A DNA stretch of 64,000 nt from a virus: positions 1-64,000 of the IMG/VR virus record IMGVR_UViG_3300012682_000001; one strand, 5' to 3'. The notes beneath the pieces were generated by a model. The model saw only the letters and a list, made by a program, of their open reading frames with translations, did no database searches and was not told the origin of the DNA. Made by a program: the position numbers and the translations under genes. Below, piece by piece: positions 9,846-54,251 of the stretch (positions are counted from its first letter, which is position 1; every line of letters begins with the position of its first letter).

Positions 9846-9865
9846 CGACATCAGGGCACAAAAAT

Positions 9866-10158: not shown

Positions 10159-10171
10159 AGTTGAGGTGAAA

Positions 10172-10196: not shown

Positions 10197-10207
10197 AATC
10201 GGTTTGG

Positions 10208-10518: not shown

Positions 10519-10520
10519 AC

Positions 10521-23113: not shown

Positions 23114-23377
23114 ATGGCGACGAGCGACCACACCCTGCGTTTCCGCCAGGACAGCACCGAGAGCCTGATCACCCTAAAGGCATCCCTCATCGCCAAGGAG
23201 TCCGTCTTCTCCCAGCAGGCCATGGGCAGCAAGAGCTTCACCCGCGACCTGCGCTTCATGGCAGACCAGATCAACGCCATCTGCTTCGTGCTGGCGGAGC
23301 GCGGTTACACCGTCCACCCCACGGCGCCGACTGCGAATTACGGAGCTGGTATTTGTGATTTCAGCAACGTCCAATGA
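23114..23377 (+). CDS. gpW-like head-tail joining protein
   Basis: 87 aa, immediately upstream of and ATGA-coupled to the portal, as lambda W is to B; helical Leu/Ile pattern. Confidence 0.5.
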   Translation: MATSDHTLRFRQDSTESLITLKASLIAKESVFSQQAMGSKSFTRDLRFMADQINAICFVLAERGYTVHPTAPTANYGAGICDFSNVQ

Positions 23378-33840: not shown

Positions 33841-34755
33841 ATGACCGAAGCTGAGACCGATCTCTCACAAGCCCTGCCGGAAGGCGAGGGGAAAGTAACG
33901 ACGATCTACGCGCTCGTTAATCCGACCACGGGGATTCCGTTTTATGTCGGCAAGGCGAACAACGCGCACAAAAGATTCACCAAGCACCTGCATGAGGCCG
34001 CGCTGTGGAGTAAGTGGGCTTCAGGGGGAGGGCGAAACGAAGAGCGGCCACCCAAGGTAAGTAACGTAGGGAAGTGCTCCGCGATCGACGGGATAACCAA
34101 GGATGGTCTGATACCCGAGGTGAGGATTCTGGAGAGATGCACCTTACCTCAATGGGCCGCCCGAGAAAAGTTCTGGCATTCGGAACTGGAAAAATCGGGA
34201 GCCATATTGACCAATAGCGCGGAGTGCGGAGCGGGATGCACATATCAAACACAGAGAGCGATAGAGGCGATGCGGTCTTCGAGAACGGGGCTAAAGGCCA
34301 GCCCCGAAACCTGCGCCAGAATAAGCAAGGCTATAAGGTCCAGCCTCCGAGTTAAGGCTGGGAATAAAGCCAGAAAGGGAAAGAGAAAACCGGAGGGGTT
34401 CGGGGCCATGGTGTCCCGTAACTGGACAGGAAGAAAGCACTCGGATGAAACCAAGGCGAAGATCAGCGCAGCAAGGAAAGGGGTTCGGCAGCCGGACTGG
34501 GTAAAGCAGAAGATCAGCGCTGGATTACAGAGCAGCGAAAAAGCGAGAGCAGCGCGGCTGGCCAGTATAGGGAGGAAACTAACCCCAGAGCACAGGGCCA
34601 ATGTCAGCGCGGCCCTGAAGGGAATACCCAAACCGACCGTAAGCGCCGCCCATAAAGGAAAGAAGAAATCCCCCGAGCACATGGAGAAGCTAAGGGCCGG
34701 ATACATGGCCTTTCTTGAGAGATCGCGAGCAGAGAGAGACCCTGCCTCGGATTGA
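33841..34755 (+). CDS. GIY-YIG homing endonuclease with NUMOD3 repeats
   Basis: TTIYALVNPTTGIPFYVGKANNAHKRFTKH (GIY...YVG...R). Repeated G-x-K-x-S-x-E-x-K-x-K-I-S modules (GRKHSDETKAKISAARKG, GKKKSPEHMEKLRAG). Confidence 0.85.
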   Translation: MTEAETDLSQALPEGEGKVTTIYALVNPTTGIPFYVGKANNAHKRFTKHLHEAALWSKWASGGGRNEERPPKVSNVGKCSAIDGITKDGLIPEVRILERCTLPQWAAREKFWHSELEKSGAILTNSAECGAGCTYQTQRAIEAMRSSRTGLKASPETCARISKAIRSSLRVKAGNKARKGKRKPEGFGAMVSRNWTGRKHSDETKAKISAARKGVRQPDWVKQKISAGLQSSEKARAARLASIGRKLTPEHRANVSAALKGIPKPTVSAAHKGKKKSPEHMEKLRAGYMAFLERSRAERDPASD

Positions 34756-36618: not shown

Positions 36619-37590
36619 ATGTATAACACAGCAGACGCCATTCCCCGCGCCGAAATCAGCACCGTGCTGATGGAAGCGGTTGGTCAAGAAAAAGAGTTCA
36701 TCGCACCGATGGTGTTGCCGATCTACGACTCGGCCAACGAGATCGGGCGCTACCCTCGCTTCACCGTCCAGGACACGGAGCTGATGAAGAGTGGCTCGCT
36801 CCTCGTGGGCACCACCAAGCGCGGCTCGGCCGGCACCTACAACGAGATCGATCGCAAGTTCGCGTGGGACACCTTCCAGACCGAGGAATACGGCTTGGAG
36901 GAGCGCGTGGACGATGTGGTCGCTCGGAGGATGCAGAACTACTTCGACGCGGAGATGGTCACCGCCAAGTTCCTCAGCAACAACCTGATGATCGACTACG
37001 AGCGGGAAGCCGCTGCCGCGATCATGAACCCAGCGGTGTTCACCACGACCAACTCCTCGGTCCCTTACACCCAGGCGAACGTCGGCTCGATGGACGTGCC
37101 TTTCGATCTCAACTCGCTGGTCGAGCGCATGACCATTCTCGGCGAAGGCCGGACGGTCATCATCATGACTCTCCCGGTATGGAACCGCATCCGCAGCTCT
37201 GCGAAAATGCAGACCTACATGTATGGCCAGCTCAACACCACGCAGGGTGGAAGCCAGGTCACGCCTGACATGTTCGGCAACGCCTTCGGGGTGCAGGTGA
37301 TCATCGCCAAGAAGAGCTTCGACTCGGCGCTCAAGGGTAAGACCTCGACGCTGGTGCCGATCTGGGGGAACGACTACATCGCGGTGATGAACATCGGGGA
37401 AGGTGACTTCCTGACAGGCGGTGTGGGGCGGACGATCGTCTGGAGTCCCGACAGCCCCGGAGGCCTGTTTACTTCTGAATCCTACAGAGATGAGCCAAGA
37501 CGCAGCAACGTCCTCCGCGTGCGCTCCAATCGCACAATCAAGATTCTTGCCCCGCAGCAGGGCCAGCTCCTCGCCACCCAATGGGCCTAA
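36619..37590 (+). CDS. major capsid protein (lambda gpE-like)
   Basis: 323 aa; position; followed after one gene by a strong terminator. The fully antisense 325-aa ORF is Arg/Gly/His junk. Confidence 0.8.
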   Translation: MYNTADAIPRAEISTVLMEAVGQEKEFIAPMVLPIYDSANEIGRYPRFTVQDTELMKSGSLLVGTTKRGSAGTYNEIDRKFAWDTFQTEEYGLEERVDDVVARRMQNYFDAEMVTAKFLSNNLMIDYEREAAAAIMNPAVFTTTNSSVPYTQANVGSMDVPFDLNSLVERMTILGEGRTVIIMTLPVWNRIRSSAKMQTYMYGQLNTTQGGSQVTPDMFGNAFGVQVIIAKKSFDSALKGKTSTLVPIWGNDYIAVMNIGEGDFLTGGVGRTIVWSPDSPGGLFTSESYRDEPRRSNVLRVRSNRTIKILAPQQGQLLATQWA

Positions 37591-40138: not shown

Positions 40139-40804
40139 ATGGCCGTCGATCAAAACTTCGCGGCTGCCTGGATAGACGGGGCAGGAGACCTCGAATACGC
40201 GCCAACCCGACTCCTCGGTGTTCGCGTCCGCAAGTTCTGCCTCTGGCACCGACTCCTCCTGCGTGTCCTCCAGAGCCCACTCATGGGAAGCGGAGAGCGC
40301 GTGGACTTCTTCGCCCTGCGGACCGCCGTAGGTATCTGCCGCCTGCGCTATGGCGACTGCACGATCAGGCGCCCGTGGCTGGTCCCCGCGCTTTTGACCA
40401 CCAAGGCCGTCCTGGCCTCCCTGCTCTCTTTCCGCCGTCGTGTATCACCCGACGAGCCAAACGCCCTACAGCGGGCCATTGCGGCCCAGGCTGAGGTCAT
40501 CCTGGAGCACTTCGGGGACTACCTCCAGGAACCAGACGCATCAATCATCCCACACGACCTGCCGAAAGGTGCTACCCCGCAGGCACCTATGGGCTCAGCA
40601 CCGGCAGAGCTGGAGATAGCCTGCGACATCATCGGCTGGGCACACTGGCCTGAATGGAAGGTCTGGGAACTACCCATGGGAAAAGCGAACCACTACCGGA
40701 CAATCGCTTTACGGACCCGAGGTCTTCTGGTTGACTTCCACAACGAGGAGCAGAAGGCCTTTGAGGCCCAGCTACCTCCCGAATTCAAACACACCAAAGA
40801 CTAA
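40139..40804 (+). CDS. hypothetical protein upstream of tape measure
   Basis: Track ORF. Confidence 0.6.
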   Translation: MAVDQNFAAAWIDGAGDLEYAPTRLLGVRVRKFCLWHRLLLRVLQSPLMGSGERVDFFALRTAVGICRLRYGDCTIRRPWLVPALLTTKAVLASLLSFRRRVSPDEPNALQRAIAAQAEVILEHFGDYLQEPDASIIPHDLPKGATPQAPMGSAPAELEIACDIIGWAHWPEWKVWELPMGKANHYRTIALRTRGLLVDFHNEEQKAFEAQLPPEFKHTKD

Positions 40805-40805
40805 C

Positions 40806-43649
40806 GTGGCTGGATTTAAGGACTTTCTAAAAAAGGAGGCGGGCAATACCCTTAAGGGCGGGCTTGGGAAGGCGTTCGTAGGATTCGACGTGGCCAACCT
40901 GGTCGTAGCCGAGAACAAGCTCAAGGCCGTAGGGCAGCTCCTAAAGAACCTAATCCTACTCAGGCTCACCATGGCTACAGCCTTCGCGGGTTTGTTCTCC
41001 ATGATGAAGAGCGGCATCCGGTCGCTAGTCACCGATACCGGGGCGCTCAACGCGGCGATGGATAAGCTGCGCAAAATCAGCGCAGGAACCAGAGAGCTGC
41101 AAAACCTGATCGGCACCCTCAAGGAGACGAAGCGCTACATGGGCGAGCTGGTCAAGATCAGCGAGAAGAAGCTGGTCCCGATCGAAGAGCTGGTAGCTGC
41201 CGCCAAGGGGATGAAAATACTCTCCCAGGGGACCATGGGGACGGTGAAAGATTTAGAGAAGATGGTCGATCTCTCCAGGGCTACCGGAAGGGGCCTGGTC
41301 GAGACCACGGATGCTGTTACGCAGCTCAAGAGGGACCTGCAAGACGGCAAGCCCATCGACAGCTCGGCTGATGCACTGGAGCGCATGGGGGCGATGTCCG
41401 CCTCAAGCGCCCAGAAGCTCAAGACACTCCAGGAGACCGGAGCAACCCTGAATAGTCAGCTTGAGTTCATGAACTCCGGGCTGGACGCCGCAGCCAAGGC
41501 AGGATCGGGTTTCGAGCAGAGCCTCGAAGGGCTCAACCAGAAGCTCGCCGAGAGCGAGGAGCTGATGAAGTCCAAGTTCGGGGAGTCCTTCCTCGAAGGA
41601 GAGCGGAAATCCACCGAAGCGGCAATCAAGCTCAACGAGAGACTCGCGGAGATACTTGGGGTCGTTGGCGAGGCCCTTTCCAAAGTAGGCTCGGCGGGCT
41701 CCGGCATCAGGGACACGATGCTGACCAAGCTGCTCTCTCTGCCGGGAGTGCTGCCAGCCACCAAGGTCCTAACCAACACGCTCACGGCGGCAGTAACGGC
41801 AGCCTCGGCGCTCGGTGCGATCTCAGCCGGGAAGTTCCTCTACAAAGGAGGCAAGGCGGCAATGTCTTCGATTCGTGGCTTCGACGCCACGGCCTCGGCT
41901 AGCAACATGCTCACCCGATCAGTGGCGATGAGAGAAGCGGGAGCTACCGGGATAAGGGGACTGGCGGCCAGCGGGCTGGAAGCTGGAGCCGTGGGGCTAT
42001 CCAAGGGAGCAGCTTACGCAAGTCGAGCCACGAGCGGTATCGGAGGCAAGATAGGCAGCGGCCTTGGTAGAGTGATCAAGGGCGGGGGCTACCTCTATCT
42101 AGCAGCAGAGGCCGCGATGGCTGTAAACGCATCACGAGAGCGAGAAGCCGCGCTTAAAAAGCTGAAGGACTCCAACTCCTCGATGGAAACGTCCATGGCT
42201 GGACAGATCGCAGCGGTCCGCAGCCTTTCTGACGCCCAGAAGGCCCTCATTGATTCAACCAACCAGCTCACCGCAGCCAGAGAAGCGGCGGCGGACCCCT
42301 CCGGGGACAGCAGGGTGACCGGGCAGGACAATCTCCACGTCAGACGTTCTGCATTCTTGCGGAATGAGGCGATGAATAAACTGATGGGACTATCTGCCGC
42401 GCCGGACTCCGATCGTCTCGCCAGGGATCGACGGGTTGGAGAGATCAGCGCGCAGCAGCAACTCTCGCGGGCGACCGGGGAGGATCGGGCGAGACTCACG
42501 GAAGCAGCCGCAGAAAAAGCCCGAATGAGGCTCTTCGAGCGAGACACCTTCACGAAGGATAAGAAATCAATGGCCGCGCTGGAGATCGCCGCGGCATCCG
42601 GGGACCAGGGGGCTATCGGGGAGCTGGGCAGGAGGCGGAACACCTCGGGGTCGTCCTTAATGCGAGAATCACAGGCGCTGGAGTCCGACCGGGCTACCAA
42701 AGGCGGGACACCAGCCTTCGCGGCCCGAGAGGCGAGATACAAAGAGCGCGAGGCCTACATCATGGGCGCCTCCGGGGAGGACGTAGCGGCAGCCGAAGAG
42801 GAAGCAAGAAGCGCCAAGCTCCAATCCGAGGCCGACGAACGCAGCCTCGCCACCCAAGAGAAAATCAACGCCCTGAAGTCGGAGGGAGTCCAGCGCGCCA
42901 AAGACATCAGGTTAATCGAAGAGGAGGCCCTGGATGCGGAGATCGAGGCCGCCATTAAAAGCGGCAACAAAACTGGCGCCCAGGCGATGACTGGCCAGAG
43001 GGAAGCAGCCAAGACCGCGGCCAACGCCGCCGATAAAGAGGAAGAGCAGGCAAGCAACCGAGCTGACACCGAGCTGAAGATCGCCCTACTCAAGGAGCGA
43101 GGATTCGCCCTCGCCGAGAAGGAATCAGCCCTGAGGCGCCAGCAACTACTCGATGAGCTGAAGGCCATTCCAGCCGGAGACGTGGAGGCAGTGAAGAGAA
43201 AGCAGGCGGAGATCGCCGGGCTCGATACAGACACCAAGCTCAGGAGGGAGGAGCGCGCCTCCTCGGACATCGACCAGCAGATCGAGCTGACCCGCCAGAA
43301 AGGGCAGCTCACCGGCAACAGCAAGATGGCCCAGGGGGCCGATGACTTCGCGGCCTACAAGGAGAAATACGACCAGCTAATCGGAGAGGGCCGCGACCCC
43401 GATCAAGCCAAGGCCATCGCCTCCAGATTCACCCAGAACTCGATCTCCCTGGAGTCCTTGAGCGGGCAGAGTTCCCTTAATGCAGCAGCAGCGGTAAGCA
43501 GCATGGCCAGGATAGGAGGAGGTGGAGGAGTCGAGGCTGTCGGAGGCGACCGCCTGCTGACCGCTACGGAGCGCGGCAACTCCCTCCTGGAGAAGATTGA
43601 GAGCTACACTAAATTCCTGGAGAAATCCCGCGACATGTCAATCCAATGA
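40806..43649 (+). CDS. tape measure-like protein
   Basis: About 947 aa, long Ala/Glu/Lys/Arg coiled coils with Gly/Ala hydrophobic patches. GTG start chosen 1 nt after the upstream stop (the track ORF opens at 40731). Confidence 0.7.
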   Translation: MAGFKDFLKKEAGNTLKGGLGKAFVGFDVANLVVAENKLKAVGQLLKNLILLRLTMATAFAGLFSMMKSGIRSLVTDTGALNAAMDKLRKISAGTRELQNLIGTLKETKRYMGELVKISEKKLVPIEELVAAAKGMKILSQGTMGTVKDLEKMVDLSRATGRGLVETTDAVTQLKRDLQDGKPIDSSADALERMGAMSASSAQKLKTLQETGATLNSQLEFMNSGLDAAAKAGSGFEQSLEGLNQKLAESEELMKSKFGESFLEGERKSTEAAIKLNERLAEILGVVGEALSKVGSAGSGIRDTMLTKLLSLPGVLPATKVLTNTLTAAVTAASALGAISAGKFLYKGGKAAMSSIRGFDATASASNMLTRSVAMREAGATGIRGLAASGLEAGAVGLSKGAAYASRATSGIGGKIGSGLGRVIKGGGYLYLAAEAAMAVNASREREAALKKLKDSNSSMETSMAGQIAAVRSLSDAQKALIDSTNQLTAAREAAADPSGDSRVTGQDNLHVRRSAFLRNEAMNKLMGLSAAPDSDRLARDRRVGEISAQQQLSRATGEDRARLTEAAAEKARMRLFERDTFTKDKKSMAALEIAAASGDQGAIGELGRRRNTSGSSLMRESQALESDRATKGGTPAFAAREARYKEREAYIMGASGEDVAAAEEEARSAKLQSEADERSLATQEKINALKSEGVQRAKDIRLIEEEALDAEIEAAIKSGNKTGAQAMTGQREAAKTAANAADKEEEQASNRADTELKIALLKERGFALAEKESALRRQQLLDELKAIPAGDVEAVKRKQAEIAGLDTDTKLRREERASSDIDQQIELTRQKGQLTGNSKMAQGADDFAAYKEKYDQLIGEGRDPDQAKAIASRFTQNSISLESLSGQSSLNAAAAVSSMARIGGGGGVEAVGGDRLLTATERGNSLLEKIESYTKFLEKSRDMSIQ

Positions 43650-44407
43650 GCCTCGCTAATCCCAATCTTAAATACTACGGCACCACCGGGGTTATTATCC
43701 GCAGCTATGGGACCTTGCTGGTGTCCCGCAGCGGCCTGGCGACCTGCGCCGCGGAGTTTATGGTCATCAGGAAAAACTGGACCCAGCTACCACAGGCAGG
43801 AGCCCAGCATCCCATCTTCACCTTTATCCAGATCGAGGAGCTTGAAATAAATTTCGAGGGAGCCTATGCGGTATCCAAGTGTAAATACGTCGGCGCCGAC
43901 CCCCGAACTTTCGAGTCCGAGGGGTGGACCCCGCCGACCTACGAGCTTTCGATTAGCCTGAGCGAGGAGAGAATCGCCACGCACCCAAAATTCAAGGAAA
44001 TCGGAGGGAGCGCCAAGGAGCCAAAAAACGGCGCAAACTTCCGTAATGCTGCCAATCCCAAGATGCCAAACGCCACGACAGAGGAGCCCGCCAATAGCAA
44101 CGACGGATACGTCTTCGACAGCTTCGATCTAACCATTGGCGATGAAGTCAACGACTTTGCAGGGATGGAATCCTACCTTGACCCAGGAGCCACCTGGCGG
44201 GCGACCAGCACTGGACGCTACAGCGCCGCCACGATCAACGCTGCTGGCTCCATCGGTATTCCGATCGGACCGGCCCCAAACCTCAGCAGTGGCCGCAACT
44301 GGCTTTCAATGGGGATGAGTTCAGTCCAGAGGGGCAGAGTCTTCCAGCTAACCCAGGAGTGGCGGGCGAGTGGGCGGCGTGGATGGAATCGTAAGGTTTA
44401 CGGATGA
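43646..44407 (+). CDS. tail protein
   Basis: Track ORF, ATGA-coupled to the tape measure. Confidence 0.6.
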   Translation: MSLANPNLKYYGTTGVIIRSYGTLLVSRSGLATCAAEFMVIRKNWTQLPQAGAQHPIFTFIQIEELEINFEGAYAVSKCKYVGADPRTFESEGWTPPTYELSISLSEERIATHPKFKEIGGSAKEPKNGANFRNAANPKMPNATTEEPANSNDGYVFDSFDLTIGDEVNDFAGMESYLDPGATWRATSTGRYSAATINAAGSIGIPIGPAPNLSSGRNWLSMGMSSVQRGRVFQLTQEWRASGRRGWNRKVYG

Positions 44408-45138
44408 GCCTGGATACCGCGCTTAGCAAGCTCACCCCGGTATCCAGGGGGATGGGTATCCTCAAGGTGGTTACCGCCGAGCGAATCCAGGGCATTCAGG
44501 ACGCACTGGTGGCCCTAACCAGGGGAGGAAACCTTCGTTCCGGCCCTGGCATTATGATCGACACCGCACCTTCCGGGGTGGTGATTAAAGCCTATTCCGA
44601 CCCATCTTCAACCAGGAGCTACCCCGCCCACCCATTTGAGGTAGTGCCTGTCGCAGTCAAAGGGGCGGCCAAGGGGTCAGTTAATCTGCAAGTGGAGATG
44701 GATAGCTGGCTGATGAAAAGTGAGAAATGGAACGACAAGATGACCATCACTGGGCTCGGGGAGCCATTCGAGCTGTCGGAAGATGACCTGGCCATATGGC
44801 TGGAGATAACACTGGACGGCGAGGGGGCTGTGACCAAGGCCACGATCGAGCACGGCAAGCCCGGAAATACGGGTGACTGGAGAGACTTCCCGGACCCATT
44901 CCATTACGACGATGAGGAAAACCAAGACAAATACTTTCAACTGCTGGCCTATATTGACCCAGTGACAGAAAATCCATATCGGCCTGGCGGCATACCGATT
45001 TCAGGAAAATCACCACGAAGGCTGGTGCAATGCACCTACGTCAATCTGATCGTTGCTGAGAAATGTCTTGTAGAGGATGGTCGAACCGTGAGAGTTCTAG
45101 CTCCATGGCACGCTCCGTATGTTGCCGGAGGCAAATAA
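44404..45138 (+). CDS. tail protein
   Basis: Track ORF, ATGA-coupled. Confidence 0.6.
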   Translation: MSLDTALSKLTPVSRGMGILKVVTAERIQGIQDALVALTRGGNLRSGPGIMIDTAPSGVVIKAYSDPSSTRSYPAHPFEVVPVAVKGAAKGSVNLQVEMDSWLMKSEKWNDKMTITGLGEPFELSEDDLAIWLEITLDGEGAVTKATIEHGKPGNTGDWRDFPDPFHYDDEENQDKYFQLLAYIDPVTENPYRPGGIPISGKSPRRLVQCTYVNLIVAEKCLVEDGRTVRVLAPWHAPYVAGGK

Positions 45139-45150: not shown

Positions 45151-45807
45151 ATGGGTCAGAAAACCAGGCCTGTAGCGATCTGCACGGACTGCTACGAGTG
45201 CGAACAGTCCTGCTGCTGCAATCCGCTGGATTTTAGGGCGGAGGGCATCCGATACCCCTGCACTCTGCCAACGGATAAACCGCCGCTTTGCAAGAAGATG
45301 GAGTTCGGATTTCACTGGAACGAATTGCCAGCCTGCGTAATTGCACTCGCAAAGGGGGCGGAGATACTTTACGAAATACGCCTGGGCGACTGCGCATCCC
45401 CTGTGGTTCGCACCTTTGATCCACTCACGATACTAAATGCCATCAGCGCCGAACTATCACGCTCCGATTGGTGTGATACGCCATACCTCTGCAAATGCTG
45501 CGTCCCTGAAGTAGTGTGCCTTACGGTAACCGCTGGAGGTGAGGAGATAATGCGCTGCGTAGTATGCACTGACGGACCCTGTGACGAAAAGTGCTACCCT
45601 TCCGGCTGGTCAGAGAGCGGCAGCTCGACGAGCAGGCCATCGTCAAGCAGCAGCTACTCAAGCAGCAGCTATTCGTCTTCTTCCAGCTACTCGTCTTCGT
45701 CCTCGTCCAGCGATTCGAGTTATTCGAGCGCTTCGTCGGGCAGCAGTTCATCGAGTGATAGCCCTCCGCCGCCGCCGCTGCCCAGCAGTAGCTCCTCCAG
45801 CGCATGA
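45151..45807 (+). CDS. Cys-rich protein with ~60-aa poly-Ser tail
   Basis: About 20 Cys in the first 150 aa (CTDCYECEQSCCCNP, LCKCCVPEVVC, RCVVCTDGPCDEKC); Ser tract at 45610-45804 with mixed Ser codons. Confidence 0.7.
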   Translation: MGQKTRPVAICTDCYECEQSCCCNPLDFRAEGIRYPCTLPTDKPPLCKKMEFGFHWNELPACVIALAKGAEILYEIRLGDCASPVVRTFDPLTILNAISAELSRSDWCDTPYLCKCCVPEVVCLTVTAGGEEIMRCVVCTDGPCDEKCYPSGWSESGSSTSRPSSSSSYSSSSYSSSSSYSSSSSSSDSSYSSASSGSSSSSDSPPPPPLPSSSSSSA

Positions 45808-48800
45808 CCCCCGATTCAGCCGCGATCTGTGTCAGCTACCATGCCGGTCACAGGAAGAGCGGCGGGCTTATTTCTCCAGAGCGGCATGAGAGAATGCTCT
45901 GCGCTTCGATTGCCCGATTACGCCGGGCGCCTTACCCGGTAATCGTATCCTGCATCGGCGGAACGATCAGCCCGGCGGCGCTGGCCGAAATCCGAGCCGG
46001 TGGCCCCGTGACGGTCATCGAGGAAAGCGACTACGGGCATCAGCAAGGGGCGCTGGTCGCGCTGATCAATGGACTTCAGGCGGCGCACACTCTGGGAGTC
46101 GAATGGCTATTTTTTACAGCCGAGGATGTGATCTTTTCCGCGCGCGATCCGGTGGGCGAGGCGCTCCGCGAGGCGCGGGCGCGGGAGGTTGATTACTACT
46201 GCCACCCGTGGCTCGATGAAATCGGGATTGAAGGCGTGAGCGCGCAGGTCGCATTGATGCGTGTCTCAGCGCTATATCGCCCCGGCTTCGAGCCGCTTGG
46301 TGTGCATCTCTTTAGCGGATACCAAGGGATCGAGCATTACATTGCAGAGACCCTGCGGCAGCACCGCATCCCTTACGCGCGCGATCCAGGGCTGTGGTGG
46401 TGGCATACCCACGACGCCGATGAGTTCGAGCGGTTGCTCGGGGCCGCGCGCGCGGTGCTCATTCGCTTCACTCACGGGCTGGGCGACGCCGTCCAACTAA
46501 CCGCGGTGCTCGCTCATCTGCGCAAGCACCGTCCGCACTGGCGCCTCGACCTGGCCACCCGCACCGGCAAAGCCGCGGGGGCAAGCTTTTGCCACCGCCT
46601 CTTCAACCTCGATTGTGACGCGGTGGAAGACCGCGACTATGATGAAGTCTTCGATCTGGAGTGGCCGGAAAACGACACCGGCACGAAAACCACGAAATGC
46701 CTGCGCGAAGTCTTCGGAGTGGAGCCCGAGGGAGAATTGCTCCGCTATCGCATCGCGCTCGGAGAAGGGTCAATTCACAGAGCCGCGGCGTATCTTGAGA
46801 GAATCGGCTGTGAGCGCTTGCCGAATGGCCGCTTCAACGCGGTCTGCTTTCACTATGAAGGTAACACTTCGGCGGATCGTAAGAACCTCCACTCCATAAC
46901 CGTCGGCGCGGTGTGCGAGACCCTCATTGGAAGATTCGTGCCGATCGTTTTAGATTGGGATGCGCGCAGTCCGTTGCCAGATCAGCGAAGCATTTTTTGT
47001 CCGGTGCCGGAGGATCAGCTATGGGCGGGCACCGGCACCGGGGATGCTGAAATCCTCGCGGCGCTGATCGAGCAATGCTCCGCTTTCGTCGGCGTTGATT
47101 CTGGTCCACTCCACGTCGCCGGGGCTACTTCCACGCCGACCATCGGAGTTTGGACGGAGCACGAGCCAAGGCGCTTCTTTGACCCGCACCCGCACGCGGT
47201 TCATCTCATCCCCGCCGCCATGCGCGAGCAGCCGGGGCACGCAACCCTCCGCTACAAAACGCGGGAAATCAGCGACGCGATCGTTTCCGCTCTCGACGGG
47301 TTCGGGATCGCAAGCGGGGAGAAGGCGCGCGGCTTCGCCTTCAATAAATTAGAACAGGAGTGGGAGATCATCGAGGATGTCTATGCCCGAGATTCCTATT
47401 GCACCGCGCTCCTGCCGCGGAAGACCAGCGAGGAAATCATCGTCGATGTCGGCGCCAACATCGGCGCTTTTGCACGCCTCTGGCACGAGCGCAACCCGCA
47501 CGCCCGGATCATCTGCATCGAAGCCTGCCCCGAAAACATCCCCGTGTTGCAGCGCAACGTCGGCGCTTTTGCGACGGTCGTTCATGCCGCCTGCACTTAC
47601 GACGCCGGGCCTCTTTTCCTGCTCAATGCGTGCGGCCCGGATGGGGTCAGCACTGGCGGCAGCCGCGTCGTGGGGAGGGAGGAGTTCGATTCCGAGACCC
47701 GCCCCCATTACCAGCACGATTACCGGCCACTTCCGGTCGTCACCCTGCACGAGGTCATGTCCGAGCATGGGCTCGCGCGCATTGATCTCCTCAAGCTCGA
47801 CTGCGAAGGTTCAGAGTTCAGTATCCTGCCAGATGCGCCGCTAGGTAACATCGGGTTCATCCTGGGAGAGTATCACAGCCGAGCCCGCTGGGATGAGTTG
47901 CGAGCGCAGCGGTTTGCCGCCTGGGACTATGGCGAGATGAGGGGTGGCGACATTGGCATCTTCCACCTGCGCCCCCAAAGTGACGCTAAACCGCCACCCG
48001 CGCCGCGCAAGCTGATCCTCCGCAACGGCCAATCCCCCGGCGACATCGTGGTGCTCACCGCCGCGATCCGCGACCTGCACGCCGCCTATCCCGGCGAGTT
48101 TGAGACCGACGTTCGCACGCCCTGTCCCGCGCTATGGGAAAACAACCCGCACCTGACGCCGCTGCGCGACGACGGCGAAACCGAACATCACACGATCGGC
48201 TACCCGCTCATCCATCGCTCTAACACCCACCCACATCATTTCCTGGATGGCTTCCGTGAAGACCTAGCGCGCATCGTCGGCAAGCTGATCCCAGCCGGAC
48301 CGTTCAAAGGCGACATTCATATCTCCGATGCCGAGCGCGGCTGGATGAGCCAGGTCGAAGAAATTAAAGGACCGGGCACCCGCTACTGGCTGATCGTCAG
48401 CGGCGGCAAACGCGATTTCACCGCGAAATGGTGGGACGTGGAACGCTGGCAAGCCGTAGTGGATCACTTCGCCGGGAGAATTCTCTTCGTGCAGGTCGGC
48501 GAATCAAAGCACCACCACCCATCGCTGCGAGGCGTGCTAGACCTCCGCGGCAAGACCGACCTCCGCCAGCTCGTGCGCCTCGTCTATCACTCGGACGGCG
48601 TGGCGTGCCCAGTCACCGCGCTGATGCACCTTGCCGCCGCCGTGCCCACTAAACCGGGCCGGTCGCTGAACCGCCCGTGTGTCGTCGTCGCCGGTGGACG
48701 CGAACCGAGCCAATGGGAGAAATACCCGCACCATCGCTACCTCGAAACCAATGGCGCGCTGCGGTGTTGCGACAATGGAGGCTGCTGGAAAAGCCGCGTA

Positions 48801-49322
48801 GTGCCGCTCGGAGACGGCGACGAAAAAGACCGCAGCCTGTGCGAATGGCCCGTTGAGATTCGGACCGGCGCCTTCCTTCCGAAGTGCCTCGACCTCATTA
48901 TCGCCACGCACGTCATCGACGCGATCGAGCAATACGAGAATTGGCATCAACCGCCACCTACGCCTCCGCTGGAGCTACCCGCTCCCAGTCCTGAGCCTGG
49001 ACCGGAAATCTTCATCTACAGCGCCCGCACCAAGCGAGGGAAGCGCACTAAGACATGGGGACCGCCCGCCTGGGAACGCCTGCACGTCGCCGCCAGAACC
49101 CTGGCCACGCCCGAGGCGCGCGCCACATTCCTAGACGAGTTCACCCGCGGCATTCCGTGCGGCGACTGTCGGACAGGCTGGGCAAAAATACTTACCGAGA
49201 ACCCGCCCCGCTTCGATTCATCCGAGGATTTATTCGCGTGGAGTGTAGAGGCTCACAACGCCGTAAACGTAGCCCTCAAGGCCGAGCCGTGGACAATAGA
49301 GCAAGCGCAAGCTCGATGGTAG
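45804..49322 (+). CDS. multidomain enzyme: unknown N-domain + GT9 + FkbM methyltransferase + GT9 + Erv1/ALR sulfhydryl oxidase
   Basis: GT9-1 ~46447-47230 (LIRFTHGLGDAVQL ... VGVDSGPLHVAGATSTPTIGVW). FkbM ~47436-47975 (VDVGANIGAF ... LKLDCEGSEFSIL). GT9-2 ~48004-48945. Erv1/ALR ~49053-49319 (WGPPAWERLH ... PCGDC ... HNAVNVALK). Confidence 0.85.
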   Translation: MTPDSAAICVSYHAGHRKSGGLISPERHERMLCASIARLRRAPYPVIVSCIGGTISPAALAEIRAGGPVTVIEESDYGHQQGALVALINGLQAAHTLGVEWLFFTAEDVIFSARDPVGEALREARAREVDYYCHPWLDEIGIEGVSAQVALMRVSALYRPGFEPLGVHLFSGYQGIEHYIAETLRQHRIPYARDPGLWWWHTHDADEFERLLGAARAVLIRFTHGLGDAVQLTAVLAHLRKHRPHWRLDLATRTGKAAGASFCHRLFNLDCDAVEDRDYDEVFDLEWPENDTGTKTTKCLREVFGVEPEGELLRYRIALGEGSIHRAAAYLERIGCERLPNGRFNAVCFHYEGNTSADRKNLHSITVGAVCETLIGRFVPIVLDWDARSPLPDQRSIFCPVPEDQLWAGTGTGDAEILAALIEQCSAFVGVDSGPLHVAGATSTPTIGVWTEHEPRRFFDPHPHAVHLIPAAMREQPGHATLRYKTREISDAIVSALDGFGIASGEKARGFAFNKLEQEWEIIEDVYARDSYCTALLPRKTSEEIIVDVGANIGAFARLWHERNPHARIICIEACPENIPVLQRNVGAFATVVHAACTYDAGPLFLLNACGPDGVSTGGSRVVGREEFDSETRPHYQHDYRPLPVVTLHEVMSEHGLARIDLLKLDCEGSEFSILPDAPLGNIGFILGEYHSRARWDELRAQRFAAWDYGEMRGGDIGIFHLRPQSDAKPPPAPRKLILRNGQSPGDIVVLTAAIRDLHAAYPGEFETDVRTPCPALWENNPHLTPLRDDGETEHHTIGYPLIHRSNTHPHHFLDGFREDLARIVGKLIPAGPFKGDIHISDAERGWMSQVEEIKGPGTRYWLIVSGGKRDFTAKWWDVERWQAVVDHFAGRILFVQVGESKHHHPSLRGVLDLRGKTDLRQLVRLVYHSDGVACPVTALMHLAAAVPTKPGRSLNRPCVVVAGGREPSQWEKYPHHRYLETNGALRCCDNGGCWKSRVVPLGDGDEKDRSLCEWPVEIRTGAFLPKCLDLIIATHVIDAIEQYENWHQPPPTPPLELPAPSPEPGPEIFIYSARTKRGKRTKTWGPPAWERLHVAARTLATPEARATFLDEFTRGIPCGDCRTGWAKILTENPPRFDSSEDLFAWSVEAHNAVNVALKAEPWTIEQAQARW

Positions 49323-49355: not shown

Positions 49356-52300
49356 GTGAAGATATACGCCAACACCGACCTCCACCTCATGGTGGAGCAA
49401 CCACTGGTCACGAGCCCAGTGTCGTCGATCTCCTTCCCAAGGGCCTCAAGTGTTCCCATCGAGGTTCAATTCACCAGGGATGGCGGTATATACGACCCGG
49501 AGGTCCTGACCGCCGCCATCACCAGCTCGGCAGTGGCAGCCAACGGGATCATCACCACGCCCGCTCCTCACGGATTCATCAACGGCGACTCGGTGGTCAT
49601 CGCGGGGCATACCGGGGTCACTAAGACCATCCTGACGGCCACGGCGACCACAGCCCCGGTAATCACCACCTCCACGAACCACGAACTGACTACAGGCGAT
49701 ACGGTGGTAATAGCAGGGTTTCCAACTTCCGAGGAAATCTCAGCGGACATCACGCTCTCCAGCCCAGGAGGCGAAGGGGTAACCTTGGTGACTACCTCTG
49801 GAGCGCACGGCTTCTCCTCCACTGACCGCGTAACGATCTCCGGGCACACAGGCAGCCCAAGGTCCATCACCTCATCTTCGGTGGCGGGCTCCAGCGTCAT
49901 TACCGCGCCCAACCACGGGCTATTCTCCGCCGACGTAGTGACCATCGCTGGCCACGGCTCCTCGCCAGCAATAACCAAGACGATCACCAGCTCCTCAGTG
50001 GCAGCAGCCACGCTGATCACCACATCCTCGGCCCACGGCCTATCCAGCGGGGATTCAGTGACGATCGCCGGGCATACAGGGACCCCCAAGGCGATCACCA
50101 GCTCATCGATCGCCAGCCCAACGGTGATCACCGCCACCAGTCACGGACTAACCAGCGGCGACGTGGTGACAATCTCCGGCCACGTCGGCTCCACCCCCGC
50201 AGTGGACGGAAGCTACACCGCCACCGTGACAGGGGCGAACACCTTCACCGTCCCAGTGAATGTAACCGTGGCCGGGACAGGCGGAACCGTGACCGCCCCA
50301 ACGAGCATTCCGACGATCAACGGGACCAGGGTGGTGACCTACGTGTCCACCACCACCTTCACCATCCCGGTGAATGTGACCCAGGCTGGAACCGGGGGAG
50401 CGGTCACCCGTGCCGCGGTGGACCTGAACGGCTCCAGAACCGTCACCTACATCAACGCAGATACGTTCTCCGTCCCAGTAAGCATGGCTTCCTCCATGAC
50501 CGGAGGGACAGTCACCAAGGCCACCAGCACGCCCGACATAAATGGCCTGTATGGCATTACCAAAATAAGCTCGGACACCTTCTCGGTCCCGCTGACTCTG
50601 ACCCATGGGGGCCTCGGCGGTTCCGCCCTAAGGCCCGCCAGTGATCTAAACGGCAGCAGGGTGATCACATCCACGGGCGCTACGACCTTCACCGTCCCTT
50701 ATACCAACAACCACGCGGATGTCGGAGGGACCGCCACCAAGTCCACGAGCACCCCGGACATCAACGGAACCAGGGCAGTAGGAAATGCCACCACCTATAC
50801 CTTCACCGTCCCGGTCAACGTAACTGTCGGAGGGGTAGGTGGCACCGCCACCAAAACCTCGCCACTGAATCTACGGTGGACAGTTAAGTCCGACCAGAAG
50901 TTCGACGAGGACCCTCCGCTGGTCACGCTCAACTCCTTCGTCAAGAGCGGCATCGGCGCTTCTACGGTCTTTCGTGGAAACGCGAACTACATCACCGACA
51001 CCCTCAACGCCCTGCTCGGGGTAAACCTGACAACCACAGACGACAAGGCTGAAATCCTGGCGATGTCCGAGCTGCGCTGGGACGGCATCGACCCCGGCAA
51101 GACCAGGTGGGCACCCCACACGATCTGCAACGACATCTGGAAAGACACAGATACGGTCGTAACCACTCCATCCGGGGGCGCCAGATTCACCACGCTTGAG
51201 AGCTTCTTTGATCTCCCAAACAAGCAGCTCCTAGCCGCTCATTCACACGCCGATCCCGCGCTCAGCGTCGATCGCCTGATTGCGGGGAAGAATCCGGCAG
51301 GGACCGATCGCCAACTGTTCACCTCGATGACGCACACGGGCACGCCGGCCTACGCGCGGAACCCGGCTTGGGCCGATCTCGATCTCACCTGCTTCAGCCC
51401 GTGGAATAGCTACTACGGCGCCCAAATGGGTGGAGTCGCGATCAGCCCGCGGCACGTCTTGCTCGCCGAGCATTTCAGCGGAGGCACCGGCACCGCGTCC
51501 GTGGCAAACGGGACGACATGGAGGTTTGTGACCCGAGATAACGTCATTGTTAACCGGACGATCACAAACAAACTGCGCGTCGGCGTGACCGATCTCTGCA
51601 TCGCCCTCCTCGACTCCGATTTGCCCGACACGATCACGCCTGCCCGCGTGTTGCCGCCGGACTACGCCAACTACTCTGCTCCCGCCGACTACCCGGCCAT
51701 TTATTCCGATTTTGAGAAAAAAGTCCATGTCCGCTGGCTTTACGACCTTGGGGGCTTCGCATCTCTTTCGGCAGACCCTCTCCGCAGCGCTTGGGGCGAG
51801 GACGTAATAACAGGCGATTCGGGGTCGCCGATGTTCATTATCTTCGGTCGGGTCCCGGTGCTTCTGGGGCTATTCCAAACTTCCACCGGCGGTCCTTCCG
51901 TCTCGGCGCAGGTCGCGAACGTGAATGCGGTGATGACCACGCTGGGGGGCGGCTACGCGCTCACGGAGGCTGATCCACAGACGATCGTGACAAACCGTTC
52001 CGTAATCGGAACTCAACTCTATGTCACCGGGAATAACCCCTCCTATATTGACGGAAACAGCGCTTCGACCCTCTTCTCGATTTACAATTCATTAGGGAGT
52101 GCGCTGTCTCTTAGTTCTGGAGGTGTAGTTACGAACCCGGTCCTGAGTATATCCCAAGGGGCCGGACCATACGCGCAATTTAACGGTCTCTACGGCGTAG
52201 TTAATCTTTCAATCGGCAGTAACGGCTCACTGACCTGGGCCGACGCAGCCGCGAAGCTCACCACCCGCGCGAGCCTCGACTCCACCGGCTCGACCGGCAT

Positions 52301-53294
52301 CAACGCGCAGACCGGCACGAGTTACACGTTCGTCCTCGGCGACGCCGCGAAACTGGTCACAGCGTCCAACGCGGGCGCGATCACCCTCACCGTCCCGCCG
52401 AACGCCAGCGTCGCCTTCGCCATCGGCACCCGGATTCACGTCCGCCAGCTCCTCACCGGGCTGACGAGCATCGCCGCTGGCGCGGGCGTGACGATCAATT
52501 CCCTCTCCGGCCTGCTCGCGCTCAATGGCCAGTATTCCGGCGCCCAACTCATCAAGACCGGCACTGACACCTGGTCGCTGGAGTTCAGTAGCCCCGGCGG
52601 GATCACCGCCGCCGGGCTTGCCTTACTCGATGATGCGTCCGCCGCAGCGCAGCGCACCACGCTCGGAGCCGCCGCCAGCGGCGCGAATGCGGACATCACC
52701 AGTATCTCTACAGGCGGCACCACGCGTGCGAGCTTTGATTCCAACGGACTAACCGCCACCGCCGCGCTTCGCGTTGGGACGTTTCTTTATCTACAAAACG
52801 GCGGTGCGACGACGGTGCTTTTTAACGCGGGAGGCGGCGTCCTGCAGGTTGTAGATGCAACGTTTGCGGGCGGAAACGCACTGCTGATTGGCGCAAATAA
52901 CACGACTACTGGGACGCGCATCAAACGGAGCGGCACGGGGGTCCAAATTCGCGTCGGCGACGACACGGCAGATGCCGCCCTTAGCGCAGGTGCTGTAACT
53001 ATTGGAACAGGCGGCACCGCAATTCAGAAAGTGCTCAGCGCAGTCAAGAGCGCGTTCGATTGCCCGAGCATCGCCGCAAGCGGTGGCGTGCAAACAACCA
53101 CCCTCACTGTTACCGGAGCCAGCACTACGAGTGCCACCAGTGTCTCTGTTCCGAGCGGCGGGCTAAATGACGGCGTGGTTATTGATGCCTATGTTTCAGC
53201 CGCAGACACCGTGACAATTAAGTTCACCAACACTACCGTTGCGACGATCGATCCAGTGAGTGCTAGTTACCGCGTAGTCATCCTCAACTTCTAA
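49356..53294 (+). CDS. tail fibre with tandem repeat arrays and an embedded trypsin-fold domain
   Basis: GTG start. Six HG(F/L)xxGDxVxIxGH repeats (49548-50190). Six ~37-aa (D)(L/I)NGxRxV...TF(T/S)VP repeats (50200-50870). LLAEH / DLCIALL / GDSGSP triad. C-terminal LGAAASGANADITSI fibre motif. Confidence 0.8.
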   Translation: MKIYANTDLHLMVEQPLVTSPVSSISFPRASSVPIEVQFTRDGGIYDPEVLTAAITSSAVAANGIITTPAPHGFINGDSVVIAGHTGVTKTILTATATTAPVITTSTNHELTTGDTVVIAGFPTSEEISADITLSSPGGEGVTLVTTSGAHGFSSTDRVTISGHTGSPRSITSSSVAGSSVITAPNHGLFSADVVTIAGHGSSPAITKTITSSSVAAATLITTSSAHGLSSGDSVTIAGHTGTPKAITSSSIASPTVITATSHGLTSGDVVTISGHVGSTPAVDGSYTATVTGANTFTVPVNVTVAGTGGTVTAPTSIPTINGTRVVTYVSTTTFTIPVNVTQAGTGGAVTRAAVDLNGSRTVTYINADTFSVPVSMASSMTGGTVTKATSTPDINGLYGITKISSDTFSVPLTLTHGGLGGSALRPASDLNGSRVITSTGATTFTVPYTNNHADVGGTATKSTSTPDINGTRAVGNATTYTFTVPVNVTVGGVGGTATKTSPLNLRWTVKSDQKFDEDPPLVTLNSFVKSGIGASTVFRGNANYITDTLNALLGVNLTTTDDKAEILAMSELRWDGIDPGKTRWAPHTICNDIWKDTDTVVTTPSGGARFTTLESFFDLPNKQLLAAHSHADPALSVDRLIAGKNPAGTDRQLFTSMTHTGTPAYARNPAWADLDLTCFSPWNSYYGAQMGGVAISPRHVLLAEHFSGGTGTASVANGTTWRFVTRDNVIVNRTITNKLRVGVTDLCIALLDSDLPDTITPARVLPPDYANYSAPADYPAIYSDFEKKVHVRWLYDLGGFASLSADPLRSAWGEDVITGDSGSPMFIIFGRVPVLLGLFQTSTGGPSVSAQVANVNAVMTTLGGGYALTEADPQTIVTNRSVIGTQLYVTGNNPSYIDGNSASTLFSIYNSLGSALSLSSGGVVTNPVLSISQGAGPYAQFNGLYGVVNLSIGSNGSLTWADAAAKLTTRASLDSTGSTGINAQTGTSYTFVLGDAAKLVTASNAGAITLTVPPNASVAFAIGTRIHVRQLLTGLTSIAAGAGVTINSLSGLLALNGQYSGAQLIKTGTDTWSLEFSSPGGITAAGLALLDDASAAAQRTTLGAAASGANADITSISTGGTTRASFDSNGLTATAALRVGTFLYLQNGGATTVLFNAGGGVLQVVDATFAGGNALLIGANNTTTGTRIKRSGTGVQIRVGDDTADAALSAGAVTIGTGGTAIQKVLSAVKSAFDCPSIAASGGVQTTTLTVTGASTTSATSVSVPSGGLNDGVVIDAYVSAADTVTIKFTNTTVATIDPVSASYRVVILNF

Positions 53295-53298: not shown

Positions 53299-53790
53299 AT
53301 GCCCACGAAACCCATCCCGTCATCTCCTAAAGTTGTCGTCGTTACCAGCCCCGAAGAGGTCCTCGTCGATGGAGAGAGCTTCGGCGCAGTGGCTGATACT
53401 ATCTCAAACAACCCCCACCTTGCTGCATCCATCCAGCGCGCGTTACAAGCCTGGCATGATGATAAAAAGTCCAAAGATAAAGAAGCCCGCGCAGCCGAAT
53501 TTCTCGCCGAGAAAGAAACCCACCGCTGCGAAAAAGAGTCCAGGGACGCCGAGCAAGGAGCCCGCATAGAGGCCCTTCAATCCACCGCAATAGAGGCCGC
53601 TCGTCTGCAAGCGATCTTCAAGCAGCTCTCCACAGTAGCCGACGACAAGGAGCTGTCTCCAGAGGACCAGCTAGCAAGACTCACTCAGGTCATCACCGAA
53701 GCCCTCAAGCCAGAGAGACAGCGCCGTAGGGAAACCCTCGAAGCCGAAGTAGCCTCCAAGCAAACCGAACTCGACGAACTAACCACATGA
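53299..53790 (+). CDS. hypothetical coiled-coil protein
   Basis: Track ORF directly after the fibre gene. Confidence 0.6.
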   Translation: MPTKPIPSSPKVVVVTSPEEVLVDGESFGAVADTISNNPHLAASIQRALQAWHDDKKSKDKEARAAEFLAEKETHRCEKESRDAEQGARIEALQSTAIEAARLQAIFKQLSTVADDKELSPEDQLARLTQVITEALKPERQRRRETLEAEVASKQTELDELTT

Positions 53791-54251
53791 ACATCCTAAT
53801 CGTAGAAGACCACGAACCATACTCCAACACCCTCTGCCGACTAATCACCGAAAAGATGGGAGCCGACTGCTTTGTAGCATCCACCATCGAGGATGCGCTG
53901 GGCATTACCAAGATCACCCGTATCGACATCACCCTGCTGGCCCTGAGCCTTCCGGTAACCAAGGGCAGCAAGGAGCTAATGCCACTCCAGGAGGTCATCG
54001 CGAGCATCCCCCTTTTCCCGCCTCCGGTCATCGTGGTGACCGACCGCGAGGACAATGATGGGTTAATCGAGATCGATTGCTACCGGAACTGGGCGCAGAA
54101 CTTCATCACCAAGGACGCCCTTCGTGACGGACTGGGTAAATTCAAGGGAGCGGAATTGATTAAGGAGATCACCAAGTCATACTGGCGGAACGTTCTCCCG
54201 GACCAGTCTCTCAAGCCCATACACGAACTAGCCGAAGCAACCAGCGCGTGA
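53787..54251 (+). CDS. orphan CheY-like receiver domain protein lacking the phospho-acceptor Asp
   Basis: MNILIVEDHE ... RIDITLLALSLP (Ala at 53940-53942 where LLD is expected) ... PVIVVTDRE ... FITKDAL. Confidence 0.75.
   Translation: MNILIVEDHEPYSNTLCRLITEKMGADCFVASTIEDALGITKITRIDITLLALSLPVTKGSKELMPLQEVIASIPLFPPPVIVVTDREDNDGLIEIDCYRNWAQNFITKDALRDGLGKFKGAELIKEITKSYWRNVLPDQSLKPIHELAEATSA

Follow-up and report, generated by a model that had tools for sequence, protein, structure and literature searches.

What is the function of two overlapping phage genes, one encoding a small protein crowded with cysteines and ending in poly-serine, the other a long chain of glycosyltransferase, methyltransferase and sulfhydryl oxidase modules? 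This question is raised by positions 45151-49322 of a 64,000-nucleotide stretch of the IMG/VR virus record IMGVR_UViG_3300012682_000001; the whole stretch is referred to here as the window. An initial annotation of this DNA had read the pair as a phage-encoded system for cytoplasmic disulfide formation and serine O-glycosylation of a tail-associated protein. Our results support, with moderate confidence, a model in which the pair is a maturation unit devoted to a tail-tip-associated protein, encoded by a phage whose host belongs to the Planctomycetes-Verrucomicrobia-Chlamydiae (PVC) group and is probably a Planctomycete. The strongest part of this model, the link between the Erv1 oxidase domain and the Cys-rich domain, we consider very likely, and a link between the glycosyltransferases (GTs) and the Ser tract reasonably likely.

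An Erv1 domain paired with a cysteine-rich protein

The open reading frames (ORFs) and their parts, with residues numbered in amino acids (aa), are as follows.

45151-45807, plus strand: 218-aa Cys-rich, Ser-tailed protein
45151-45621, plus strand: Cys-rich domain, aa 1-157, 19 Cys; a rare family with a conserved Cys framework
45622-45807, plus strand: Ser-rich tail of ~60 aa, candidate O-glycosylation tract, predicted disordered
45804-49322, plus strand: 1172-aa multi-enzyme
45804-46448, plus strand: module 1, GT-A/nucleotide-diphospho-sugar transferase fold, aa 1-215, with a TAEDV (DxD-like) motif
46449-47303, plus strand: module 2, GT9a, heptosyltransferase-like, aa ~216-500, motifs HGLGDAVQ and VDSGPLHVAGA
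47439-47885, plus strand: module 3, FkbM-family S-adenosylmethionine (SAM)-dependent methyltransferase (MT), aa ~546-694, PF05050 and TIGR01444
48006-48953, plus strand: module 4, GT9b, divergent GT9-like, aa ~735-1050, PF01075
49050-49322, plus strand: module 5, Erv1/ALR FAD-linked sulfhydryl oxidase, aa ~1083-1172 plus the stop codon, PF04777
49158-49169, plus strand: active-site CGDC, Cys1119-x-x-Cys1122, aligned to solved Erv members

Both ORFs lie where the initial annotation placed them, with the stop codon of the first overlapping the start of the second as ATGA, and the CxxC that it located maps to Cys1119 and Cys1122. It had read four enzyme modules in the longer ORF (two GT9, one FkbM and one Erv1/ALR), each of which stands, and had missed a fifth, the N-terminal GT-A. 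Pfam gathering scores served as the match threshold, and NCBIfam curated/equivalog cut-offs were also applied. Searched as a whole, the ORF gave significant matches above the gathering score to Glyco_transf_9 (2.3e-18, two stretches), Methyltransf_21/FkbM (1e-12) and Evr1_Alr (2.5e-11).

The Erv1 match covers aa 1090-1172 and reaches 44.3 bits against a gathering score of 27.6. Among Protein Data Bank (PDB) chains, phmmer matched the domain to yeast Erv1 (2.9e-7), Erv2, ALR and African swine fever virus (ASFV) pB119L (3gwl, 2.6e-5), and its PCGDC aligns with PCNWC of Erv1 and PCTRC of pB119L. The CxxC and the flavin-site residues (GxxxW..LH, W...HNxVN) are invariant among four phage Erv1 domains, yeast Erv1 and ASFV pB119L. 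We assign the C terminus of the 1172-aa ORF to the Erv1/ALR family, with oxidase activity as its predicted function. Erv-like proteins in which the CxxC is changed to CxC (FGCDC, FDCGC) or to a vicinal CC (TCCGEDW), with HNxVN kept, also occur in phage-like loci (L094:9848-10258, L095:9818-10150, L096:426-812 from a Pirellula metagenome-assembled genome (MAG), and L081:9875-10276); these may be variant or inactive oxidases.

All 19 Cys of the 218-aa protein (8.7% of its residues) fall within its first 157 residues, close to the earlier estimate of about 20 in the first 150 or so. They are clustered at the N terminus as C-x2-C-x2-C-x3-CCC and at the C-terminal end of the domain as RC-x2-C...C-x3-C. 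By comparison, the enzyme has 28 Cys and each of the 18 other large structural-region ORFs 0-5, and the 218-aa ORF is the sole Cys-rich and sole Ser-tract protein in the window. The Ser tail had been called almost pure, which slightly overstates it: Ser makes up 68% of the last ~58 residues and 80% of the best 40-aa window, and the tail includes a PPPPPLP stretch. No other ORF in the 64-kb window is at least 50% Ser over 40 aa. As noted previously, the Ser codons are mixed, and in fact all six are used (AGC 15, TCG 10, TCC 5, AGT 4, TCA 3, TCT 3). Within the tract, Tandem Repeats Finder detected nothing beyond two-copy repeats of 29-37 bp, so it is no DNA microsatellite. The sequence contains neither a signal peptide nor an N-terminal hydrophobic segment, so we take the protein not to be exported by Sec. 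An AlphaFold2 model gave a beta-rich core with a predicted local distance difference test score (pLDDT) of 70-88 and a disordered Ser tail, and the Cys-domain model had no fold match at E<=1e-3 in the PDB or BFVD.

The Cys-rich family is very small. Among 1.84 billion representative proteins, searched exhaustively with HMMER, the domain has four relatives (P0121-P0124). Three more members were found at the DNA level: L001:4898-5644, L091:5978-6766 and a truncated copy in L099, a 1.6-kb contig that was the only yield of a metagenome scan with the family. Protein databases under-represent these genes, as two gene-calling failures indicate: in L001 an antisense 89-aa ORF (5326-5595) was chosen over the Cys/Ser-rich gene, and L009:1303-2343 (P0123) was called from an internal Met, losing its CDDCEPC...CCC N terminus. 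A 44-aa fragment after P0123 in L009 was considered as the N terminus of a GT32 and dropped, as it had no Pfam support. The Cys framework is conserved across the family, and a Ser-rich tract follows the Cys domain directly in six of the seven full-length members.

In all five family members for which the downstream DNA is long enough, an Erv1 domain lies within 5 kb, and in four of them the genes overlap, which bears out the co-occurrence that the initial annotation had expected. In two further loci, a Cys-rich tail protein unrelated to this family overlaps an Erv gene, so that an Erv accompanies the Cys-rich tail protein at 7/7 loci:

Window: 218 aa, 19 Cys, Ser tract present; the five-module enzyme, whose C-terminal domain is Erv1, overlaps
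L001, phage contig of 30 kb that includes a capsid gene: 248 aa, 19 Cys, Ser tract present; P0004, of the same architecture and 43-51% identical, 4.4 kb downstream
L091, Verrucomicrobiaceae MAG with a capsid gene: 262 aa, 21 Cys, Ser tract present; overlapping 1053-aa GT9b-Erv1-plus protein
L010: 255 aa, 19 Cys, Ser tract present; overlapping GT25-Erv1-unknown fusion
L008, 26-kb phage contig: 503 aa, 29 Cys, no Ser tract; overlapping stand-alone 160-aa Erv1
L092, Chthoniobacteraceae MAG: unrelated Cys-rich tail protein, 681 aa, 32 Cys, no Ser tract; overlapping small stand-alone Erv gene
L094, Pirellula MAG: unrelated Cys-rich tail protein, 440 aa, 22 Cys, no Ser tract; overlapping small stand-alone Erv gene

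The Ser tract and the glycosyltransferases vary together. Where the tract is present, Erv1 is fused to GTs in four of four loci, which belong to non-homologous families (GT9 in three, GT25 in one), and where it is absent, the Erv is stand-alone in three of three (L008, L092 and L094); given the small and related sample, we treat this covariation as suggestive and not as statistical. At an additional locus, L069, two poly-Ser tail proteins that are Cys-poor are followed by an Erv1-(weak Stealth-like stretch)-Methyltransf_24 fusion.

The background rate of Erv1 in phages appears to be very low. Neither ORF had a tblastn match among 50,697 deposited phage records, and no true phage among those records had an Erv1 homologue, the lone match being a 620-kb Mollivirus-like giant virus. 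Eighty Erv1 loci in IMG/VR were almost all stand-alone genes in giant-virus-like contigs, with no member of the Cys family beside Erv1 in any of the 80. Apparent Cys-rich neighbours in L025 and L028 proved to be off-frame artefacts of repeats in contigs resembling those of nucleocytoplasmic large DNA viruses (NCLDVs). Word-indexed searches, whether with the Cys domain or with Erv1 alone, returned no matches, probably because of a limitation of the index, and a search of IMG/VR for the enzyme by peptide patterns also returned none. When the 244-aa protein encoded directly upstream of the pair was used as a neutral anchor, it retrieved two related phages (L097 and L098), neither of which had the Cys family or Erv1.

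The sugar-modifying modules and their cellular relatives

Module 1 matches the Pfam family NTP_transf_3 (MobA-like) at the cut-off itself (5.9e-6, 27 bits). Its AlphaFold2 model (pLDDT 77, predicted template modelling score 0.81) had 376 Foldseek matches in the PDB at E<=1e-3, the best at 5.9e-8, and the top fold matches included COLGALT1 (GT25), 3cgx, SpsA, Skp1 GalT and GDP-Man pyrophosphorylase. Judged from this model, the module would be either a glycosyltransferase or a sugar nucleotidyltransferase. It is 43% identical to its counterpart in the phage-borne homologue P0004, where TAEDV is kept. We detected no relationship to the GT25 module of L010 by hhalign, and a metagenome scan with this phage-specific N-terminal module gave no match.

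Scanned alone, GT9a and GT9b score 40.2 and 31.4 bits against PF01075, for which the cut-off is 22, and the FkbM module scores 49 bits against 22.7 for PF05050 (aa 548-694) and 63.5 against 37.7 for TIGR01444 (fkbM_fam). GT9b is 52-66% identical to its cellular and phage homologues and carries a Cys cluster, CC-x2-GGCW-x(18)-C-x(14)-C (48765-48890, aa 988-1028), that is invariant in both and looks like a structural metal site. The initial annotation had asked whether the catalytic-type motifs persist among relatives, and they do: in addition to the invariant CxxC and Erv signature, more than 100 homologues retain the GD and DSGP-type motifs that mark the GT9 modules.

The GT9-MT-GT9 core copies, in permuted domain order, an enzyme that is common in Planctomycetota, a relationship that the initial annotation had not recognized. 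We compared the best 119 of 196 homologues, consisting of 118 cellular proteins and P0004. Both GT9 modules, GT9a included, are present in all 119. Homologues with a named source come from Planctomycetota (Pirellulaceae, Rhodopirellula, Schlesneria and others), and the cellular ones are annotated as 'FkbM family methyltransferase' or 'ADP-heptose:LPS heptosyltransferase/SAM-dependent methyltransferase'. The phage core is 40-57% identical to the cellular enzymes, in which the order is GT9b-GT9a-methyltransferase in 118 of 118 listed, whereas the order GT-A-GT9a-MT-GT9b-Erv1 occurs, among the homologues listed, only in the window enzyme and P0004. None of these 118 cellular proteins has Erv1, and all start at GT9b and so have no GT-A. 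The difference in module order identifies the phage enzyme as a domain-permuted derivative of the host-type enzyme, and on the same comparison of sequences it has gained a GT-A at one end and the predicted oxidase at the other. The methyltransferase slot is held by either an FkbM or a class-I enzyme, both in the cellular proteins and in the two phages (FkbM in the window enzyme, class I in P0004). That a methyltransferase of one type or the other fills it in cells and phages alike argues that methylation is an integral step.

The cellular relatives also bear on the donor sugar. The gene for the cellular protein P0007 is directly followed by a PfkB plus CTP_transf_like gene, the HldE architecture of ADP-heptose synthesis, and P0010 carries a fused PfkB domain; these associations make ADP-heptose a reasonable donor. 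The cellular and phage enzymes probably use the same donor sugar, judging by this HldE-like neighbour, although we regard heptose as only a tentative identification. GT2 genes also accompany the cellular enzymes. In the same cellular Planctomycete operon as P0007 (L003:10001-20265), a GT9b-GT9a-FkbM-MT24 enzyme is followed in turn by the HldE-like gene, a 469-aa protein, a 1005-aa protein and a giant protein of the RHS/LamG type. An N-terminal motif is common to the 469-aa and 1005-aa proteins, and the latter, in this single case, has two repeats and long Ser/Ala linkers; both may be cellular substrates of the double-GT9 enzyme family.

A proposed mechanism and its alternatives

In the model that we favor, the 218-aa protein would be made in the reducing cytoplasm of the host, where the Erv1/ALR domain, using FAD and O2, would introduce disulfides into the 19-Cys domain. 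The GT-A, the two GT9-type modules, probably supplied with host ADP-heptose, and the FkbM O-methyltransferase would assemble an O-glycan, possibly methylated, along the disordered poly-Ser tail. The outcome would be a disulfide-stabilized, mucin-like glycoprotein that joins the tail tip. Fusion of the oxidase to the glycosylation modules, together with the gene overlap, would hold enzyme and substrate together, and the start/stop overlap at four loci suggests translational coupling. We infer the virion location, the formation of disulfides and glycan, the identity of the sugar and direct action without a relay protein. A broader version of this model, which could equally turn out right or wrong, is that tailed phages of PVC bacteria (Planctomycetota, Verrucomicrobiota) own a cytoplasmic disulfide pathway in which an Erv always comes right after a Cys-rich tail-tip protein and is fused to interchangeable GT/MT modules when poly-Ser is present, giving a single-chain 'maturase' that would cross-link and glycosylate its neighbour.

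Several observations weigh against the maturation-unit model. With respect to oxidation, cellular Erv1/Erv2-type oxidases carry a shuttle disulfide, a second CxxC or CxC pair, on a flexible N- or C-terminal arm near the core, but no Cys that could form one is found in the window enzyme between residues 1028 and 1119 (exclusive) or past residue 1122. By comparison, N-terminal CxxC motifs are present in the stand-alone Erv1 proteins of L008 and of L092, and a CC immediately precedes the Erv core in the L008 Erv1 and in the L091 fusion; a shuttle disulfide arm is not known to be required in viral Erv members such as pB119L. Neither a thioredoxin-like relay partner nor a counterpart of the NCLDV relay proteins (A2.5L/G4L, pA151R) was found among the ~35 window ORFs scanned, many small ORFs being left unscanned. 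Since the nucleotide-sugar donor, SAM, FAD and O2 must in addition come from the host or the environment, the description of the pair as self-contained in the initial annotation was too strong. With respect to location, the Cys-rich protein is assigned to the tail-tip module from synteny alone, and neither it nor its neighbours matched a PHROG or Pfam structural family. With respect to the pairing, the covariation sample comprises ~8 informative loci that are phylogenetically related and not statistically independent. In L001, moreover, 4.4 kb including a kinase gene separate the Cys/Ser-rich gene from the maturase gene. The two anchor-picked phages add partial exceptions: L097 encodes a small 11-Cys protein and no Erv1 in the available DNA, and in L098 a 604-aa tail-module protein (8525-10611) starts with PCCESCCCG, like the N terminus of the Cys family, and is otherwise Cys-poor, with no Erv1. 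That this motif occurs without Erv1 suggests that the N-terminal Cys cluster is a separable module, perhaps a metal-binding one; a 92-aa protein with 8 Cys in CxxC pairs follows the 604-aa protein.

A further point against the model concerns the chemistry of the sugar modules. The GT9 modules did not reach the lipopolysaccharide (LPS) heptosyltransferase equivalogs (TIGR02193, 37.8 against 185.3; TIGR02195, 27.8 against 134.6; TIGR02201, 26.6 against 170.2), and scores so far under the cut-offs indicate that they are not orthologues of WaaC, WaaF or WaaQ. Bacterial autotransporter heptosyltransferases (BAHTs; TibC, Aah/AAH2) are GT-B enzymes related to LPS heptosyltransferases that heptosylate protein Ser from ADP-heptose; they form dodecamers and have an iron-finger motif. 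The kinship with BAHTs that had been proposed for this enzyme was not supported. GT9a matched only LPS-type GT9 chains in the PDB, 3tov and WaaF 1psw, and those weakly, and GT9b, as a single sequence or as an 11-sequence profile, matched no GT9 chain, nor the TibC chain that we take to be in the PDB; the profile matched no solved structure at all. Thus, the PDB searches detected no similarity to protein-heptosylating enzymes, and BAHTs offer an analogy only: the proposed chemistry is the same, whereas their acceptor is Ser in autotransporter beta-helix repeats and here it would be a disordered poly-Ser tract.

In a different explanation, the Erv1-Cys link is real and the GT/MT modules act elsewhere, on the 1312-aa fibre, other virion proteins or a host glycan, with poly-Ser as a flexible spacer. 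The fibre is 25% Ser+Thr, the Ser tract in P0121 and P0123 is plainly a linker to a further small domain, and the Cys-poor poly-Ser proteins of L069 indicate that Ser tracts and Cys-rich domains are separable; no search result points to the acceptor of the GT9 modules. If the tract were irrelevant, however, it would be hard to explain why GTs of non-homologous families (GT9, GT25) are fused to Erv1 only where the tract is present (4/4 versus 0/3), and Ser-rich linkers are classic O-glycosylation sites in other systems. We therefore consider this explanation unlikely, although the fibre is a candidate for an alternative or additional glycosylation target.

The close relationship to cellular enzymes suggests another possibility, that the 1172-aa gene came from a host and serves as a 'moron' whose product remodels the host envelope glycan or LPS core, for example in superinfection exclusion, with its adjacency to the Cys-rich gene incidental and Erv1 serving the folding of the enzyme itself. 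The 40-57% identity of the core to abundant Planctomycetota enzymes would fit, as would the presence of HldE-like and GT2 genes beside those enzymes, as expected for envelope glycan synthesis, and morons near tail-fibre genes are common in phages. Nonetheless, the cellular homologues keep the GT9b Cys cluster without having Erv1, so folding of the enzyme needs no Erv1. Erv1 also follows the Cys-rich gene even where there is no GT (L008, L092 and L094), different GT families have been recruited to the same position beside Ser-tract proteins, and incidental adjacency sits poorly with the four start/stop overlaps; we give this possibility little credence. Finally, the odd number of Cys (19), the CxxC/CCC clusters that resemble metal sites, the similar PCCESCCC motif of L098 without Erv1 and the metal-site-like invariant cluster of GT9b could mean that the Cys of the 218-aa protein mainly bind metal (Zn or Fe-S, as in some tail-tip proteins) and that Erv1 has another role, for example in host redox or H2O2 production, but this is highly improbable given that 7/7 Cys-rich tail proteins have an Erv partner gene when the background in phages is close to zero, and that no activity other than thiol oxidation is known to us for the Erv family. 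A combination of a metal cluster and disulfides is possible.

Phage setting, known systems and significance

The pair is embedded in the structural region of a tailed-phage genome, as the initial annotation had read it, with a portal, major head protein and large terminase recognized among the following features.

23374-25209: lambda-type portal
36619-37590: major head protein
40731-43649, plus strand: tape-measure-like ORF, 972 aa, named for its size, coiled-coil-like composition and position
43646-44407, plus strand: 253-aa ORF ahead of the pair
44404-45138, plus strand: 244-aa protein directly upstream of the pair, a conserved syntenic partner of the Cys-rich gene
49356-53294, plus strand: fibre-like protein, 1312 aa, downstream of the pair
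61475-63337: gpA-type large terminase

The two genes thus follow the tape-measure-like ORF and two small ORFs and precede the fibre-like ORF, the position between tail genes and fibre noted earlier. Neither the 972-aa nor the 253-aa ORF matched a family. The 244-aa protein has homologues in L008 (7e-19) and L091 (5e-8), each encoded by the ORF that directly precedes the Cys-rich gene, and in L097 its domain forms the N terminus of an 846-aa tail-like protein; it is presumably a tail-tip component. L008, L069 and L094 have in common the order of a tape-measure-like protein, one or two small proteins, a Cys-rich protein, an Erv with or without a GT, and large fibre-like proteins. The 1312-aa fibre contains 10% Ser, 15% Thr and only 4 Cys, and its repeats match E1_FCCH (PF16190, 1.7e-8). 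A 92-aa stretch of it is 38% identical to an ORF at locus L094 of the Pirellula MAG. This speaks for a Planctomycete as the probable host within the PVC group.

An identical enzyme sequence occurs on a 69.6-kb ENA contig (L002) carrying the same genome, which stops within the fibre gene where the window runs on. From the large terminase to the portal is ~26 kb going round the window ends, with replication genes between them (DnaB at 4202-5608, a helix-turn-helix protein and an AAA ATPase), and the genome is probably circularly permuted in the assemblies. Elsewhere in the window, a 1691-aa ORF directly after the portal gene (25206-30281) contains just 2 Cys and matches neither Pfam nor PHROG families, a NUMOD3/homing-endonuclease-like gene (33841-34755) is inserted between two large function-unassigned ORFs of the head-morphogenesis region, and a stand-alone response-regulator receiver protein (PF00072, 1.5e-8; 53787-54251), unusual in a phage structural region, is encoded two genes past the fibre. 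In L001, the gene between the Cys/Ser-rich gene and the maturase (6055-8910) encodes a Ser/Thr protein kinase of 951 aa that includes two fused FGE-sulfatase (formylglycine-generating-enzyme-like) domains, and a C-type lectin gene lies just downstream (14013-14471). These could represent further modification or binding functions, or merely host-type genes.

The nearest functional parallels lie in viruses of eukaryotes. NCLDVs and baculoviruses oxidize virion proteins with Erv-family oxidases, and PF04777 has been described as core or shell in all NCLDV families. The enzymes of vaccinia virus (E10R), ASFV (pB119L), mimivirus (R596) and baculoviruses (P33/Ac92) are likewise virus-encoded, FAD-linked Erv/ALR proteins with a CxxC next to the flavin site, and the presumed role, forming disulfides in virion proteins in a reducing cytoplasm, is the same. 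In those viruses, however, the oxidase is a small stand-alone protein acting in a eukaryotic host, whereas here it is the C-terminal domain of a 1172-aa multi-enzyme of a tailed phage with a bacterial host. Unlike the NCLDVs, the window phage also encodes a single dedicated Cys-rich candidate substrate immediately upstream. The literature searched contained no report of a phage-encoded Erv oxidase, and we know of no report of bacteriophages making disulfides by this route. One paper lists PF04777 in 'Pirellula (Planctomycetes), Verrumicrobiaceae' without interpreting it; in those lineages (Pirellula, Verrucomicrobiaceae), we found Erv inside phage-like loci.

Glycosylation of phage virions has a precedent in mycobacteriophages, where O-glycosylation by phage GTs was shown experimentally (Freeman et al. 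2023, as cited in PMC12582341). The phage GTs there reportedly also lie in or near the structural module and act on virion proteins in the host cytoplasm, but they belong to other GT families and their host to another phylum, whereas the GTs described here are fused to a methyltransferase and a sulfhydryl oxidase and have a role predicted from the genes. A second parallel, within the PVC group itself, is provided by the Planctomycetota GT9b-GT9a-MT fusions, which are homologous to three of the five modules, differ in their permuted order and in having neither Erv1 nor GT-A, and are themselves uncharacterized. The acceptors appear to differ as well: the glycosylated targets in mycobacteriophages are reportedly the C-terminal tails of capsid and tail-tube subunits, and the putative acceptor here is the poly-Ser tail of a small accessory protein.

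In summary, if the maturation-unit model is correct, no Erv oxidase system would have been seen in bacteriophages before this one, and its fusion of oxidase and glycosyltransferase would have no described counterpart. Confirmation would extend a hallmark strategy of 'giant viruses' to tailed phages, raising the question of the direction of transfer, and would explain the puzzling PF04777 matches in Pirellula and Verrucomicrobiaceae as phage or prophage genes. It would also provide a second, mechanistically distinct example of phage virion glycosylation and a compact, linked enzyme-substrate pair for disulfide-rich, O-glycosylated proteins in the bacterial cytoplasm, which would be of biotechnological interest. 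For the hosts, it would give a functional handle on the very abundant, uncharacterized double-GT9/methyltransferase family of Planctomycetota.

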